NCBI GenBank assembly: GCA_035221665.1
Contig: CM069132.1
Span: 117,738,001-117,802,000, forward strand
DNA from: Okamejei kenojei
Lineage: Eukaryota
Reading direction: 5' to 3'
Length of the DNA stretch: 64,000 nt
A program made the translations under genes and the position numbers. This document shows, in pieces, positions 9,835 through 54,653 of this stretch. Under the pieces are notes generated by a model. The model saw only the letters and a program-made list of their open reading frames with translations. It was not told where the DNA came from and made no database searches. The first letter of the stretch is position 1. The number at the start of each line of letters is the position of its first letter.

Positions 9835-12800
9835 ACGTGTCCAAAGGATTCTGATAAGGGAGGGAGAGGAGCCTGATGTTGTGGTACACATAGGTACCAA
9901 AGACATAGGCAGAAAAAGTGACGAGGTCCTGAAGGGAGAATTTAGGGAGTTGGGGGGAAAGTTAAGGAGAAGGACCAAAAGGGTAACGATTTCAGGATTA
10001 CTGCCTGTGCCGCGTGACAGTGATAGTAGGAATGAAATGAGGTGGAGGATAAATGCGTGGCTGAGGGACTGGTGCAGTGGGCAGGGATTCAAGTTTCTTG
10101 ATCACTGGGACCTCTTTTGGGGAAGGCATGATTTGTACACAAAGGACGGGTTGAACTTGAACCCAAGGGGGACCAATATCCTGGCAGGGAGATTTGCAAA
10201 GGCTACTGGGGAGACTAAACTAGAAAGGCTGGGTGGAGGGACTCGGGTAGAGGGGGGTAGGGGTCAGGGTGTGGGGCAAGAGGCAGAGAAGGGAAGCACT
10301 CGGATCCAAAATGTAGGCGAAAAAGATAATAGACAGAGAATAAGGGATGGTGGGTTTCTAAAATGTGTATATTTTAATGCTAGGAGCATTATAAGTAAGG
10401 TGGATGAACTTAGAGCCTGGATTGACACCTGGAAATATTCCAGGATTTCGTTGCTTCAGGTGTGATAGAATTGGAGGGACCAGAGGGGGAGGTGTTGCAT
10501 TGCTTGTCAGAGAAGATATTACAGCAGTGCTTTGGCAGGATAGATTAGAGGGCTCATCTAGGGAGGCTATTTGGGTGGAAGTGAGAAGTGGGAACGGTGT
10601 AGCAACACTTTTAGGGGTGTATTATAGACCGCCAAATGGGGAGCGAGAATTGGAAGAGCAAATATGTAAGGAGATAGCAGATATTAGTAGTAAGCACAAG
10701 GTAGTGATTGTGGGAGATTTCAATTTTCCAAAAATAGACTGGGAAACACATTCTGTAAATGGGCTGGATGGTTTGGAGTTTTTAAAATGTGTGCAGGATA
10801 GTTTTTTGCAGCAGTACATAGAGGTATCGACCAGAGAAGGGGCAGTGCTGGACCTCCTGTTAGGAAATGAGACAGGTCAGGTGACGGAGGTATGCGTTGG
10901 TGAGCACTTCGGGACCAGTGATCACAATACCATTAGTTTCAATATAATTATGGAGAGAGTCAGAACTGGACCTAGGGTGGAGATTTTTGATTGGAGAAAG
11001 GCTAACTTTGAGGGAATGCATAAGGATTTTAAAGGAGTGAATTGGGACACTTTGTTTCATGGGAAGGATGTAGAAGAGAAATGGAGGACATTTAAAGGGG
11101 AAATTGTAAGAGTACAGAATCTTTATGTCCCTGTTAGGTTGAAAGGAAATAGTAAAAATTGGAAAGAGCCATGGTTTTCAAGGGAAATTGGACACTTGTT
11201 TCGAAAAAAGAGAGATATCTACAATAATTATAGGAGGCATGGAGTAAATGAGGTGCTAGACGAGTATAAAGAATGTAAAAAGAATCTTAAGAAATAAATT
11301 AGGAAGGCTAAAAGAAGATATGAGATTGCTTTGGCAAGAAAGGTGAACGTAAACCCAAAGGGTTTCTACAGCTATATTAATAGCAAAAGAATAATGAGGG
11401 ATAAAATTGGACCATTAGAGAACCAGAATGGACAGCTATCTGCAGAGCCAAAAGAGATGGGGGAGATATTGAACAATTTATTTTCTTCGGTATTCACCAA
11501 GGAGTTAAGGGGAAAAAGTAGAGTAGCTATGGAAACTATGAGATTCAAAGAGGAGGAAGTACTGACACTTTTGAAAAATATAAAAGTGGATAAGTCTCCA
11601 GGTCCTGACAGGATATTCCCTAGGACATTGAGGGAAGTTAGTGTAGAAATAGCAGGAGCTATGACAGAAATATTTCAAATGTCATTAGAAACGGGAATAG
11701 TGCCGGAGGATTGGCATACTGCGCATGTTGTTCCATTGTTTAAAAAGGGTTCAAAGAATAAACCTAGCAATTATAGACCTATTAGTTTGATATCAGTGGT
11801 GGGCAAATTAATGGAAAGGATACTTAGAGATAATATATATAAGCATCTGGATAAACAGGGTCTGATCAGGAACAGTCAACATGGATTTGTGCCTGGAAGG
11901 TCATGTTTGACAAACCTTCTTGAATTTTTTTGAAGCGGTAACTAGGGAAATTGATGAGGGTAAAGCAGTGGATGTTGTCTATATGGATTTCAGTAAGGCC
12001 TTTGACAAGGTTCCCCATGGAAGGTTGGTTCAGAAGGTTCAATCTTTGGGAGTTAATGGCGGAGTAGCAAGATGGATTCAACAGTGGCTGAATGGGAGAT
12101 GTCAGAGAGTAATGGTGGATGGCTGTTTGTCAGGTTGGAAGCCGGTGACCAGTGGGGTGCCTCAGGGATCTGTGTTGGGTCCACTGTTGTTTGTCATGTA
12201 CATCAATGATCTGGATGATGGGGTGGAAAATTGGATAAGTAAGTATGCAGATGATACTAAGATAGGTGGTGTTGTGGGTAATGAAGTAGATTTTCAAAGT
12301 CTACAGAGAGATTTGGGCCATTTGGAAAAGTGGGCTGAAAGATGGCAGATGGAGTTTAATACTGTTAAGTGTGAAGTGCTACATCTTGGCAGGACAAATC
12401 AAAATAGGACGTACATGGTAAATGGTAGGGAATTGAGGAATGCTGTGGAACAGAGGGATCTAGGAATAACTGTGCATAGTTCCCTGAAGGTGGAATCGCA
12501 TGTAGATAGGGTGGTAAAGAAAGCCTTTGGTGTGCTGGCCTTTATAAATCAGAGCATTGAATATAGGAGTAGGGAAGTAATGTTAAAATTGTACAAGGCA
12601 TTGGTAAGACCAATTCTGGAGTATGGTGTACAATTTTGGTCGCCTAGTTATAGGAAGGATGTCAACAAAATAGAGAGAGTACAGAGGAGATTTACTAGAA
12701 TGTTGCCAGGGTACCAGCAACTCTGTTACAGAGAAAGGTTGAACAGGTTAGGTCTTTATTCTTTGGAGCGCAGAAGGTTAAGGGGGGACTTGATTGAGGT

Positions 12801-13177
12801 CTTTAAAATGATGAAAGGGATAGACAGAGTTGACGTGGATACGTTTTTCCCATTGAGGGTAGGGAAGATTCAAACAAGAGGGCATGACATGAGAATTAAG
12901 GGACAGAAGTTTAGGGGTAACGTGAGGGGGAACTTCTTTACTCAGAGGGTGGTGGCTGTGTGGAATGAGCTTCCAGCAGAAGTGGTGGAGGCAGGATCGA
13001 TTTTAACATTTAAAAGTAAAGTGGATAGGTATATGGACGTGAAGGGAATGGGAGGGGTATGGAGGGAATGGAGCAGGTAGATGGGACTAGGGGAAAACAA
13101 ATGGTCAGCACGGACTGGAAGGGCCGAGAGGGCCTGTTTCCGTGCTGTAATTGTTATATGGTTATATGTTATATGGT
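9835..13177 (+). mobile_element. Near-complete but inactivated CR1 LINE: ORF1 esterase C-terminus plus ORF2 APE endonuclease and RT
   Basis: SGNH-like VVHIGTKD; endonuclease motifs GVYYRPP, VGDFN and SDHN; RT motifs QHGF, DFSKAFD, GVPQGSVLGP and YADD. (TTATATGG)n tail. Stop at 11295-11297 and frameshifts near 10430 and 11925. Candidate TSD taagtt at 9829-9834 and 13178-13183. Confidence 0.95.
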
Positions 13178-13639
13178 TAAGTTGTAGGTGCAGATTTAGG
13201 CCATTTGGCCCATCAGGTGTAAATGGCTGATCTATCTTTCCCTCTCAATCCCATTTTCCTACCTTCTCCCAATAACCCCTGACTTCTGTACTAATGTACG
13301 GACTTGTTTTCATGCTGTATAGCTCAATGACTCTAACCTTTTCAAATGTCTTTTAAACTTCATAATTGTACCAGCTCTATCACTTCCTTTGACAGTCTGT
13401 TCCATATACCCTGCACTATAAACCCACCCAGTCTACATGGTAAAAGTTGCCACTCAGGATCCTGTTAAATCATTCCCTGTCACCCTCTAGTTTTAGACTC
13501 CCCTGTAGGGAAAAATACTGCAAATAGGCATTATTGGGCACTGCAGTCGGCAAGGACGAGGTGACCTGTAAGCCTGTTCGCGCTCTCCCTAAATGCAAGA
13601 CCTCCAGTCTTGACAACATCCCAGTGAATCTTTTAGACT

Positions 13640-19150: not shown

Positions 19151-19445
19151 ACATTTACTACCCTCCAGTCCACAGATGTAAGATTTCCTAAAGCAACTTG
19201 GATGATAATGCGATTGATAAATTAGCGAACATTATTAGTATTAAATGAGCCGAATTGAATGTAATGCAATATCAACAGGAACTATACAATCACTTTCCCT
19301 CTTCCCTGACTCCCAGTTTGAAGAAGGGTCTCGCCCAAAACATCACCAATTCCTTTTCTCCAAAGATATTGCCTGATCTGCTGAGTTACTCCAGCAATAT
19401 GTGTTGATTATCTATAGAATCACTTAGAGTCATAGAGTGACTCTA

Positions 19446-20609
19446 TGGAAGGTTGGTTAAGAAGGTTCAATCTTTGGGTGTTAATGGCGAAGTAGCAAGA
19501 TGGATTCAACAGTGGCTGAATGGGAGATGTCAGAGAGTAATGGTGGATGGCTGTTTGTCAGGTTGGAAGCCGGTGACCAGTGGGGTGCCTCAGGGATCTG
19601 TGTTGGGTCCACTGTTGTTTGTCATGTACATCAATGATCTGGATGATGGGGTGGAGAATTGGATAAGTAAGTATGCAGATGATACTAAGATAGGTGGTGT
19701 TGTGGATAATGAAGTAGATTTTCAAAGTCTACAGAGAGATTTGGGCCATTTGGAAAAGTGGGCTGAAAGATGGCAGATGGAGTTTAATGCTGATAAGTGT
19801 GAAGTGCTACATCCCGCTTGGCAGGACAAATCAAAATAGGACGTACATGGTAAATGGTAGGGAATTGAGGAATGCTGTGGAACAGAGGGATCTAGGAATA
19901 ACTGTGCATAGTTCCCTGAAGGTGGAATCGCATGTAGATAGGGTGGTAAAGAAAGCCTTTGGTGTGCTGGCCTTTATAAATCAGAGCATTGAATATAGGA
20001 GTAGGGAAGTAATGTTAAAATTGTACAAGGCATTGGTAAGACCAATTCTGGAGTATGGTGTACAATTTTGGTCGCCTAGTTATAGGAAGGATGTCAACAA
20101 AATAGAGAGAGTACAGAGGAGATTTACTAGAATGTTGCCAGGGTTCCAGCAACTATGTTACAGAGAAAGGTTGAACAAGTTAGGTCTTTATTCTTTGGAG
20201 CGCAGAAGGTTAAGGGGGGACTTGATTGAGGTCTTTAAAATGATGAAAGGGATAGACAGAGTTGACGTGGATAAGTTTTTCCCATTGAGGGTAGGGAAGA
20301 TTCAAACAAGAGGGCATGACATGAGAATTAAGGGACAGAGGTTTCGGGGTAATGTGAGGGGGAACTTCTTTACTCAGAGGGTGGTGGCTGTGTGGAATGA
20401 GCTTCCAGCAGAAGTGGTGGAGGCAGGATCGATTTTAACATTTAAGAGTAAAGTGGATAGGTATATGGACGTGAAGGGAATGGAGGGGTATGGTCTGAGT
20501 GCAGGTAGATGGGACTAGGGGAAAACAAATGGTCGGCACGGACTGGAAGGGCCGAGAGGGCCTGTTTCCATGCTGTAATTGTTATATGGTTATATGGTTA
20601 TATGGTTAT
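19446..20609 (+). mobile_element. Young 5'-truncated CR1, near-identical to 12018-13177
   Basis: RT YADD and C-terminal ORFs; (TTATATGG)n tail; TSD agtgac at 19436-19441 and 20610-20615; 2-nt insertion frameshift near 19813. Confidence 0.95.
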
Positions 20610-25950: not shown

Positions 25951-26628
25951 CTCGTATTTAGAGAGCTGAACCGACTGATTCAAACCTTTCCCTGGGCCCC
26001 TGTACTCGTCTATATACATGGCTTTACCAGCTTTGAAGTAAGAGACAAATGAACATGCACATGTTGCAAATTGACGAGGATAGATAGCAAAATAAAGAAC
26101 CATGTCTCTGAGTCTGTTAGTATGCACAAGGTAATATTTCATGCGGTGTAACTGGAAGACCTGAGAGAGTTTTTTAACTTTAAATTCATGCAAGGATAAG
26201 GTTGAATCCACAGCAAATGTTGCATTGTGGTAAATAAAGAAAATCAAATAGAAAGCACAGGACAAACTGTAGCAATGCATAATTTGCCGGAACAGAAACT
26301 GCATTCATTGTCAAACTGGAAACGATGCAAATGGTTATTCTCACTGGTGTATACAGTTGAGTGCAGTTTTATTTGCTGAAATACATGAAAATATTTTGAA
26401 CAAATAACATGTTGAAAATTGACAGTGGTGATGAACTCATGTCTGAACAAAGCCATGCATTGTGGAAGTCATTTTCTACCAACAAACCATAGAAACCTGC
26501 TTCTTCAAGTAAAAATTAATCGTCGCTCAGAACATTTTCCAATAACTTCCCTGCCACTGACATGAGGCAAGCCTGTCGTTACAGGCAACATCTTTGGAGG
26601 GAGTCGCCTTCATGGTTGCGAGGAATTT

Positions 26629-26776
26629 TTTCTTCTTCTTCTTCTTCTGTCGTGTGGCGTGCATAGCCTAAAGATGTTGGACAATTTGTTCTATTTGATC
26701 TTCTGTTTGTGCACGTCGAGTTGATTGCATTAGTCGAAACAGGGCGGACCACGTGAAGGTTGCAATCTTCCACCCC
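26629..26776 (-). mobile_element. 148-bp non-autonomous retroelement with ribozyme head and (GAA)n tail
   Basis: 10-bp TSD cgaggaattt at 26619-26628 and 26777-26786. The minus-strand 3' tail is ...CACACGACAGAAGAAGAAGAAGAAGAAA. Confidence 0.88.
26723..26776 (-). ncRNA. Predicted minimal HDV-like (CPEB3-type) self-cleaving ribozyme
   Basis: GGGGUGG AA GAUUGCA ACC UUCACGU GGU CCGCCCU GU UUCG A CUAA UGCAAUC. P1 is 7 bp with G1-U, P2 is 7 bp perfect, P3 is ACC/GGU, L3 is UUCACGU, and J4/2 is CUAA with the catalytic C at 26733. Confidence 0.85.
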
Positions 26777-27269
26777 CGAGGAATTTCTGAGTTCTGGGAA
26801 CTAGTCACGGCCTCATTATCGTCGCCGCAAATTTTTCAACATGTTGAAAAATTAACGGCGACTAGAATTAAGCCGCCATGGAGAGCAGCGAGAATTCTCG
26901 TGCCGTAGGTGGGTCGCCAGGAGGTCCTAATGGGTTGCACAAGGTCGAAGGTTCTCTGAGGTTCTCATGGGTTGTAGCCGGTGCTGATTCTGTCTAATTT
27001 TATTGACTCATTGGGAAAAAAAAGGTAAGCAGTAGTTTTCAGAATCAAGGATAACCAACCGGTAATGTTAAATATACGCCGAGCTTCACTGCCATGTATC
27101 TCTGGCTTCTTAAAAGTTGTCTCCACTCCTTCTCCCTGTCCCCCCCCCCCTCTCCCTGTCCCCCCCCCCCCCTCTCCCTGTCTCCCCCCCCCCCCCCCCC
27201 CCCCTTCTCCCCACCCCAACCCCCCTCCCTCTTTTAAAGGATTTACCGTACACTGTGCTTTAGCCGTCT

Positions 27270-28954: not shown

Positions 28955-29960
28955 CATAGAAACATAGAAAATAGGTGCAGGAGCAGGCCATTCGGCCCTT
29001 CGAGCCTGCACCGCCATTCAATATGATCATGGCAGATCATCCAACTCAGTATCCTGTACCTGACTCCTCTCCATACCCCCTGAACCCTTTAGCCACAAGG
29101 GCCACATCTAACTCCCTCTTAAATATAGCCAATTAACTGGCCTCAACTACCTTCTGTGGCAGAGAATTCCACAGATTTATCCCTGCCCCTGCACCAGTTC
29201 CTCAGCCACACATTCATAGAAATTAGGTGCAGGAGTAGGCCATTCAGCCCTTCGAGCCTGCACCGCCATTCAATATGATCATGGCTGATCATCCAACTCA
29301 GTATCCCGTACCTGCCTTCTCTCCATACACCCTGATCCCCTTAGCCACAAGGGCCACATCCAACTCACTCTTAAATATAGCCAATGAACTGGCCTCAACT
29401 ACCCTCTGTGGCAGAGAGTTCCAGAGACTCACCACTCTCTGTGTGAAAAAAGTCTTTCTCATCTCGGTCTTAAAGGATTTCCCCCTTATCCTTAAGCTGT
29501 GACCCCTTGCCCTGGACTTCCCCAACATCGGGAACAATCTTCCTGCATCTAGCCTGTCCAACCCCTTAAGAATTTTGTAAGTTTCTATAAGATCCCCTCT
29601 TAATCTCCTAAATTCCAGAGAGTATAAACCGAGTCTATCCAGTCTTTCTTCATAAGACAGTCCTGACATCCCAGGAATCAGTCTGGTGAACCTTCTCTGC
29701 ACTCCCTCTATGGCAATAATGTCCTTCCTCAGATTTGGAGACCAAAACTGCACGCAATACTCCAGGTGTGGTCTCACCAAGACCCTGTACAACTGAAGTA
29801 GAACCTCCCTGCTCCTGTACTCAAATCCTTTTGCTATGAAAGCTAACATACCATTCGCTTTTTTCACTGCCTGCTGCACCTGCATGCCTACTTTCAATGA
29901 CTGGCACCTGCATGCCTACTTTCAATGACTGGCACCTGCATGCCTACTTTCAATGACAAA
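28955..29960 (-). mobile_element. Composite young CR1 insertion with two 3' ends inside one 14-bp TSD
   Basis: TSD ggaagggctctgga at 28941-28954 and 29961-29974. ORF 29298..29897 is a CR1 C-terminus. Confidence 0.9.
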
Positions 29961-47084: not shown

Positions 47085-47540
47085 TGTGGAGAGGATGTTT
47101 CCACCAGAGGTCATAGCCTCAGAATAAAAGGACGAACCTTTAAGGGCCTGGCCCACTTGGGCATCATTTGCGCGTCACGCAGATGGTGCGCAAAGATTTT
47201 GTACATCCCAAAATCCTGGGGCGCCGCATGCGACCTTGCGTCACTGCCTACATCACCACGCATCATGTGCGCGTCACCACGCACGCCCAAGTGGGACAGG
47301 CCCTTTAGAAAGGATGATGAGGAGGATTTTTTTAGCCAGATTGTGGTGAATCCTTGGAATTCATTGGCAAAGACTTCTGTGGAGGCTAAGTCATTGGGTA
47401 TTTATAAGGTGGAGATTAACATATACTTGATTGGTAAGGGTGTCGACGCTTATGGGTATAAGGCCGGAGAATAGGGTTGAGAGGGAAACGTAGGCATGAT
47501 TGAATGGTGGAGTAGACTTGATGGGCCAAATGGCCTGCTT
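47085..47540 (+). mobile_element. CR1 3' fragment interrupted by a MITE
   Basis: TRGHSLRIKGR...FFSQIVVNPWNSL. Confidence 0.8.
47143..47304. mobile_element. PIF/Harbinger-like MITE (162 bp)
   Basis: TIRs agggcctggcccacttgggc / gcccaagtgggacaggccct; TSD TTA at 47140-47142 and 47305-47307. Confidence 0.88.
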
Positions 47541-53503: not shown

Positions 53504-54653
53504 AGAAACATAGAAACATAGAAATTAGGTGCAGGAGTAGGCCATTCAGCCCTTCGAGCCTGCACCGCCATTCAATATGATCATGGCTGATCATCCAACT
53601 CAGTATCCCGTACCTGCCTTCTCTCCATACCCTCTGATCCCCTTAGCCACAAGGGCCACATCCAACTCACTCTTAAATATAGCCAATGAACTGGCCTCAA
53701 CTACCCTCTGTGGCAGAGAGTTCCAGAGACTCACCACTCTCTGTGTGAAAAAAGTCTTTCTCATCTCGGTCTTAAAGGATTTCCCCCTTATCCTTAAGCT
53801 GTGACCCCTTGTCCTGGACTTCCCCAACATCGGGAACAATCTTCCAGCATCTAGCCTGTCCAACCCTTAAGAATTTTGTAAGTTTCTATAAGATCCCCTC
53901 TCAATCTCCTAAATTCCAGAGAGTATAAACCGAGTCTATCCAGTCTTTCTTCATAAGACAGTCCTGACATCCCAGGAATCAGTCTGGTGAACCTTCTCTG
54001 CACTCCCTCTATGGCAATAATGTCCTTCCCCAGATTTGGAGACCAAAACTGTACGCAATACTCCAGGTGTGGTCTCACCAAGACCCTGTACAACTGAAGT
54101 AGAACCTCCCTGCTCCTGTACTCAAATCCTTTTGCTATGAAAGCTAACATACCATTCGCTTTTTTCACTGCCTGCTGCACCTGCATGCCTACTTTCAATG
54201 ACTGGTGTACCATGACACCCAGGTCTCGCTGCATCTCCCCTTTTCCTAATCGGCCACCATTTAAATAATAGTCTGCTTTCCTGTTTTTTGCCACCAAAGT
54301 GGATAACCTCACATTTATCCACATTATACTGCATCTGCCAAACATTTGCCCACTCACCCAGCCTATCCAAGTCACCTTGCAGTCTCCTAGCATCCTCCTC
54401 ACAGCGAACACTGCCCCCCAGCTTAGTGTCATCCGCAAACTTGGAGATATTGCCTTCAATTCCCTCATCCAGATCATTAATATATATTGTAAATAGCTGG
54501 GGTCCCAGCACTGAGCCCTGCGGTACCCCACTAGTTACTGCCTGCCATTGTGAAAAGGACCCGTTTACTCCTACTCTTTGCTTCCTGTTTGCCAGCCAGT
54601 TCTCTATCCACCTCAATACTGAACCCCTAATACCGTATGCTTTAAGTTTGTAT
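53504..54653 (-). mobile_element. Young CR1, near-identical to 29215-29903
   Basis: GVPQGSVLGP and FADD motifs; tagaaacata tail; candidate TSD atcct at 53499-53503 and 54691-54695. Confidence 0.93.

Follow-up and report, generated by a model that had tools for sequence, protein, structure and literature searches.

How does a short, non-coding insert headed by a sequence resembling a self-cleaving RNA come to be copied around a genome, and which LINE would move it? Using a 64,000-nucleotide stretch of Okamejei kenojei DNA (the window; contig CM069132.1, positions 117,738,001 to 117,802,000), we located such an insert at 26629-26776 on the minus strand. It is 148 bp long, opens with G1 at 26776, has C44 at 26733 and ends in a (GAA)n tail. 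The 10-mers at 26619-26628 and 26777-26786 are identical and form a target-site duplication (TSD) around it. The insert, duplication and tail given in the preliminary description are thus all present, and the cleavage site predicted there, 5′ of G1, directly adjoins the TSD copy at 26777-26786. The copy is a true insertion, because the palindromic repeat surrounding it also exists uninterrupted: uninterrupted copies continue into the sequence left of 26628 and have loose ends at 26792 in 111, 120 and 7 contigs. The features are as follows.

26629-26776, minus strand: whole retroposon copy of the younger subfamily, about 128 nt plus tail
26777-26786, unstranded: TSD copy adjoining G1
26619-26628, unstranded: TSD copy beyond the tail
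26723-26776, minus strand: predicted minimal (P4-less) HDV-like ribozyme, putatively active, with the predicted cut 5′ of 26776
26770-26776, minus strand: 5′ strand of P1, partner 26741-26747
26761-26767, minus strand: 5′ strand of P2, partner 26723-26729
26748-26760, minus strand: P3-L3-P3; L3 (26751-26757) is the same as the CPEB3 and theta loops, and C22 (26755) pairs with G37 (26740)
26730-26738, minus strand: J4/2 with the predicted catalytic C at 26733, plus the 5-nt linker 26734-26738 that replaces P4
26680-26722, minus strand: 5′ part of the body, common to an older, longer relative that diverges at about nt 97
26649-26679, minus strand: 3′ segment, probably the end recognised by the protein of the partner LINE, with a weak likeness to the 3′ end of a Vingi-derived sister (p about 0.01)
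26629-26648, minus strand: (GAA)n tail
26787-26938, unstranded: palindromic high-copy repeat (MITE-like), the insertion target of the copy

The window also holds two near-identical dispersed repeat pairs (12017-13179 with 19445-20608, 97%; 29215-29904 with 53517-54205, 99%), which are young insertions of other families.

The first 54 nt of the insert fold completely. All pairs form in P1 (7/7), P2 (7/7) and P3 (3/3), with wobbles at G1-U36 and U5-G32, and in P1.1 C22 pairs with G37 while U21 and U38 do not pair. The RNA would therefore have a 7-bp P1 opening with G1-U, a P2, a 3-bp P3, a 7-nt L3 and a P1.1 in nested double-pseudoknot order, with C44, the predicted catalytic C of J4/2, four bases ahead of P2; the architecture proposed earlier holds, down to its single C-G pair in P1.1. 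One detail had to be revised. The UUCG that had been read as a shrunken P4 does not form a mini-hairpin, since that would need G37 and U38, which are taken by P1.1; P4 is absent, a 5-nt linker precedes C44, and the ribozyme is better called P4-less. A loose HDV descriptor matched once in the window, at the insert. Forty locally shuffled windows gave 7 matches, or about 1.4e-6 per position, which means that a match exactly at the first base of the element is not chance. Nested folding, a method that cannot model the pseudoknot, gave a stability that is not unusual (z -0.04). The covariation in P1 and P2 that the preliminary description had called for is uninformative within the family: of 34 double changes affecting the terminal pair of P3, 19 restore pairing but 17 of these are double transitions, and 20 of the 54 aligned rows are a sister family with a swapped P3. 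Across families, all helices are preserved with different letters, in a P4-less sister and in five heads that have P4. Among the family contigs, G32 and G42 are often affected by CpG decay, and C44 is invariant in all the rows listed for these contigs.

We then asked how large the family is and where its copies begin. In the 2.76-Gb genome, searching for a 35-nt core with ≤2 mismatches yields 15,284 matches, where a control yields 0, and hence at least 15,284 copies, the best 40 of which show 95-100% identity. An older subfamily differs at the variable base of J4/2 and in the body, and both subfamilies retain every helix. Among the 30 best full-length matches, an exact TSD of 7-15 bp ends just before G1 in 25 copies (26 allowing one mismatch); at control offsets, exact TSDs occur in only 0-2 of the 30. 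The base preceding G1 is free to be any of the four. In unselected contigs of four sequencing runs, 535, 552, 33 and 7 contigs depart from the element at 26776 into unrelated flanks, and 94, 99 and 8 depart one base further; one of the runs may come from the species of the window itself. The TSDs and the contig departures together bear out the expectation that 5′ ends across the family are fixed at G1. Family sites share no upstream flank, and sequencing contigs place the stretch in seven organisms across 12 studies. For a young CR1 protein of this genome, the closest named relative comes from a ray (57%, against 44% for birds), in line with the cartilaginous fish of the preliminary description.

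A head derived from tRNA, 5S or 7SL is lacking, as are A and B boxes, and so the element is not a Pol III SINE; at 15,284 matches, it is the high-copy short retroposon lacking a Pol III tRNA head that had been proposed. It is short, non-coding and multicopy, with a TSD and a repeat tail, as are SIDEs and bipartite non-autonomous LINEs. An older, longer relative follows the body of the element as far as about nt 97, where a single different sequence, rich in C and T, takes over (about 16 of the 100 rows listed, and 20/20 in a second set); this departure likely marks a seam between the 5′ and 3′ parts. The longer relative has no Vingi-type match within 1 kb in two sets of Vingi-type domain matches.

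We consider the element to be a SIDE-type retroposon that is neither autonomous nor coding, with a self-cleaving head and a priming tail, that is moved in trans by a Vingi-type protein, and assign this reading a probability of about 0.7. A copy would be passively transcribed within a host transcript. Its first 54 nt, whose fold is described above, would cut 5′ of G1, and this cleavage would free the element RNA from upstream sequence and leave a structured 5′-OH end. A Vingi-type APE-RT protein acting in trans would bind the 3′ segment and prime at the (GAA)n tail, and target-primed reverse transcription would proceed to G1, with the outcome observed here, a 7-15-bp TSD adjoining G1. Read-through transcription, self-release and trans-priming are modelled on the R2 SIDE and NARTc/SIDER precedents, as far as these are set out in the accessible portions of PMC3414825, PMC4035085 and PMC6765202. 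Since each full-length daughter would have its own release device, no Pol III promoter would be needed. The element would be one of a group of Vingi-type LINEs with HDV heads and of short derivatives, in some of which the head is homologous to CPEB3.

Many fairly intact Vingi-type copies are present (46 scored), about 300 Vingi-type 3′ ends are found in the genome against 7 in controls, and the Vingi-type LINEs here have (GAA)n tails plus HDV-like heads. Our label Vingi is based on the domain layout (a single ORF with APE and RT and without RNase H, about 3.1 kb in all, as in relative P0042) and on an Anolis relative, rather than on a named record. Three loci bear on the relationship.

L154, 49-150, plus strand: Vingi-type 5′ end with its own decayed HDV-like head, which has a long P4 and is unlike the head of the window element
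L072, 2720-3035, minus strand: Vingi-type LINE 3′ end with a 16-nt 3′ UTR, of the same family as L154
L027, 668-830, plus strand: sister element, a second short P4-less ribozyme-headed element with a CPEB3-type P3, a (GAA)n tail and an imperfect TSD

The junction of the sister is one base away from that of the window element, and the last 32 nt of the window element align with the sister (p 0.014 and 0.011, one of six comparisons). The sister in turn has its last letters in common with the Vingi-type end in L072 (p 0.039) and a weak trace of a Vingi-like ORF end (5.7 bits, E 0.48), while BLASTP of its 18 aa against the Vingi-type protein P0138 gave no match. In direct comparison, the last 32 nt of the window element do not align with the Vingi 3′ end in L072 (p 0.20, 0.44), and its 3′ end has no Vingi C-terminal coding trace. 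The 3′ UTR in L072 opens with the same 9 nt as nt 10-18 of the element, for which we estimate a chance of about 0.4%, and a Vingi 3′ end fetched at L153 is interrupted.

Six junction searches, with head or tail negated, each of a kind that can miss a real partner, returned no LINE sharing either end of the element. One of these sets had 83 matches, and the 30 loci that were read are mostly indel copies, with two clear 5′-truncated copies with a TSD. No foreign sequence recurs among the 100 rows listed of 158 junction rows, nor in further sets of 80 and 72. A sequence recurring in 15 of 28 junction rows was rejected as a partner because it is the end of another repeat that is also found elsewhere in the loci and in the window. 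We take the repeat recurring at the element junctions to be a Harbinger-type MITE. A MITE-like repeat, also present in the window near 47140-47305, shows many insertions at the same TTA site of the 3′ segment of the element. Two further LINE families considered as partners are CR1-like and were set aside.

The ribozyme could work as proposed and the mobiliser could be another LINE, either a young Nimb-like family or an RTE. A Nimb/I-like LINE is intact and young in this genome (L042, L091, L092; contig C2 at about 28225090-28230240, minus strand), with a CCHC ORF1, a 1276-aa APE-RT-RNase H ORF2, a (GAA)n tail and a 13-bp TSD, and RTE is described as making bipartite derivatives and having ribozymes (Kojima 2018, PMC5786205, in the part accessible). 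The Nimb-like LINE, which provided the top PF14529 matches, was nevertheless rejected as partner: beyond the tail it has no sequence in common with the element, whose last 32 nt do not align with it (p 0.35, 0.54), and no HDV-like head was found at its 5′ end. The Vingi-type heads and the Vingi-like sister in the same genome also argue against a Nimb or RTE mobiliser, which we regard as unlikely. A Vingi-type LINE is our best guess for the partner, and a probable one.

The fixed 5′ ends could also be explained without cleavage. The head may be an internal promoter, or promoter and ribozyme at once like Pr77 of L1Tc, which is described in the accessible literature as being both, and a start site at G1 would yield the same ends. 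The 5′ end of the element coincides, however, with G1 of a complete HDV fold that is kept across families with unlike letters; there are no A or B boxes; and contigs from two runs presumed to be RNA, though they may be DNA, extend into varied upstream flanks. We therefore find a promoter head rather improbable. Least probable is that the fold is an inherited relic that no longer cleaves, and that all copies descend from a single source or a handful of sources, transcribed from a start of their own further upstream: the single P1.1 pair, the lack of significant covariation within the family and the frequent CpG decay at G32 and G42 would fit it, but every helix is kept in both subfamilies, C44 is constant among the rows listed and the sites have no common upstream flank.

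Returning to the retroposon with its predicted self-cleaving head, we next consider its relation to the mammalian CPEB3 ribozyme, to whose core its own had been called identical. That identity was overstated. The ribozyme scores 19.4 bits against the RF00622 cut-off of 35 and 16 bits against the RF02682 cut-off of 44, and no CPEB ZZ domain is found on contig C2. L3, G1-G4 and the run closing P1 do equal the CPEB3 consensus, whereas the consensus is not matched in P2, P3 or the inner pairs of P1. The agreement is limited to unpaired positions, so this particular head may or may not share its descent with CPEB3. The suggested link to the origin of the CPEB3 ribozyme nevertheless holds, through other families in the genome. 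In a genome scan with RF00622, 59 of 141,138 candidates were scored and 30 of these, spread over many contigs, pass the cut-off, which no candidate passes in any of 14 control genomes. The top five matches (L148-L152) all pass, at 58.3-66.8 bits.

L148, 38-102, plus strand: CPEB3-like head above the RF00622 cut-off, ahead of a Vingi-type ORF start
L151, 34-98, plus strand: CPEB3-like head above the RF00622 cut-off, ahead of a Vingi-type ORF start
L149, L150 and L152, minus strand: CPEB3-like heads above the RF00622 cut-off

Of its first 46 nt, the head in L149 has 44 in common with the Rfam CPEB3 consensus; the head in L150 agrees with it at 56 of 67 nt and shows a compensatory change in P2. 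The catalytic C is lost in L149 and L152. None of the 59 scored matches lies within 4 Mb of five CPEB loci. The ORF starts in L148 and L151 match the endonuclease N-termini (best E 3.9e-9) of APE-RT proteins of about 980 aa without RNase H, which sit on 3.1-kb contigs and have an Anolis relative, and a profile of such proteins gives 63 bits for L148 and 27 bits for L151. A single ORF with APE and RT and without RNase H is the Vingi layout, as described in the available part of PMC13708176. A further RF00622 match (C31:21564843-930) lies 130 nt upstream of a Vingi-type endonuclease domain. The L148 family has 19 matches, 5 of them long and 14 with the head alone in common; L148 itself is probably a fragment, since it is absent from the best 150 endonuclease matches. 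The L150 family had appeared very abundant, but the matches belonged to its flank. A 24-nt core pattern occurs at 59 sites, 10 with P4 and 49 without, and most of these are P4-less with a short junction like that of the window element. At C4:69229145-69229222 (plus strand) a CPEB3-like head stands back to back with a Vingi-type endonuclease fragment (69228871-69229152, minus strand), perhaps through a 5′ inversion.

The near identity of the L148-L152-type heads to the CPEB3 ribozyme in freely varying helices favours common descent. An ancient Vingi trace is reported in the human genome (PMC5753468, from the part accessible), which implies that Vingi was active in mammalian ancestors. In our best reading, Vingi-type LINEs carry HDV-like heads and spawn minimal-ribozyme parasites like the window element, and the CPEB3 ribozyme arose from one of these heads. 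On balance we favour, with less assurance than the partner, the view that the mammalian CPEB3 ribozyme is a domesticated 5′ end of a Vingi-type LINE; that its relatives, and first homologs outside mammals, are the dispersed heads in this genome with and without P4; and that P4-less theta-like ribozymes head a family of >15,000 copies as a promoter-free, SINE-like route.

Minimal ribozymes elsewhere place the head of the window element in a wider context. In a scan of metagenomes, its P3-L3-P3 motif matched 55 times and P1 was perfect in 46 of these, so this core is common among HDV-like RNAs. Three metagenome ribozymes, which are theta ribozymes (L103, L139, L140), adjoin tRNA 3′ ends and have the P3, the L3 and nearly the same short junction of the window element; from P3 through J4/2, L140 is identical at 28 of 31 nt, of which the search pattern itself dictated 18. 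These tRNA-adjacent phage ribozymes match the element better than CPEB3 does, which speaks against the specifically CPEB3-like core of the preliminary description and weakens any special tie between the two. Theta ribozymes are described as active, with nearly 99% of the minimal ones in phages and a small eukaryote set (Kienbeck 2024, PMC10879173, as far as accessible), and by analogy the likeness supports catalytic competence of the element's predicted ribozyme. Convergence is as likely as descent here. The metagenome contigs (L095-L147) also hold many unannotated HDV-like ribozymes, among them a family with P4 that recurs in contigs rich in AT and poor in ORFs (for example L106, L109 and L125) and one that is present twice in L119.

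Ribozyme-headed non-autonomous LINE derivatives are already known, and the kind itself is not new. At title and abstract level, the literature on Vingi, HDV-like ribozymes, the CPEB3 ribozyme and skate or cartilaginous elements contains no description of these families, nor do the accessible portions of 2026 preprints, PMC13635239 and PMC10919898. The family may well be catalogued in Repbase or Dfam, and Ruminski 2011 may cover Ingi-related heads now named Vingi. In the accessible text of Kojima 2018 (PMC5786205), six LINE clades bear ribozymes, Vingi is not among them and the word shark does not occur; Bendixsen 2021 reports that the CPEB3 ribozyme was not found outside mammals and that an outgroup is lacking. 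The dispersed heads supply such an outgroup and give a testable answer to the origin of the CPEB3 ribozyme. Vingi, now a gene-writing platform according to the accessible part of PMC13708176, would join the ribozyme-headed LINE clades, which has consequences for how templates are designed. With minimal HDV-like ribozymes so numerous in the genome of a vertebrate, host transcripts could be cut by thousands of copies lying in introns, and the family offers many natural variants of a 54-nt catalyst.

Among known systems, Vingi LINEs, taken together with bipartite non-autonomous LINEs, are known to yield internally deleted derivatives (Kojima 2018, PMC5786205; review PMC13708176; both as far as accessible). 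The Drosophila R2 SIDEs (Eickbush 2012, PMC3414825) and the trypanosomatid NARTc, RIME and SIDER elements (PMC4035085) are, in the available portions of these sources, likewise short and non-autonomous, with an HDV-like 5′ ribozyme, a LINE-type 3′ end and TSDs. The present family differs from them in being of a vertebrate, in its at least 15,000 dispersed copies, in its P4-less 54-nt ribozyme and in its (GAA)n tail. Minimal HDV-like and theta ribozymes lack P4 as this one does; theta ribozymes adjoin phage tRNAs, whereas the ribozyme of the window heads a chromosomal retroposon and no tRNA is found at its locus (L001). The CPEB3 ribozyme (RF00622) is alike in L3, in a one-pair P1.1 with a U.U and in a G-rich start of P1, but it is single-copy and intronic and the element differs from it in P2, P3, inner P1 and the absence of P4, while other families of the same genome, at 58-67 bits, are far closer to it.
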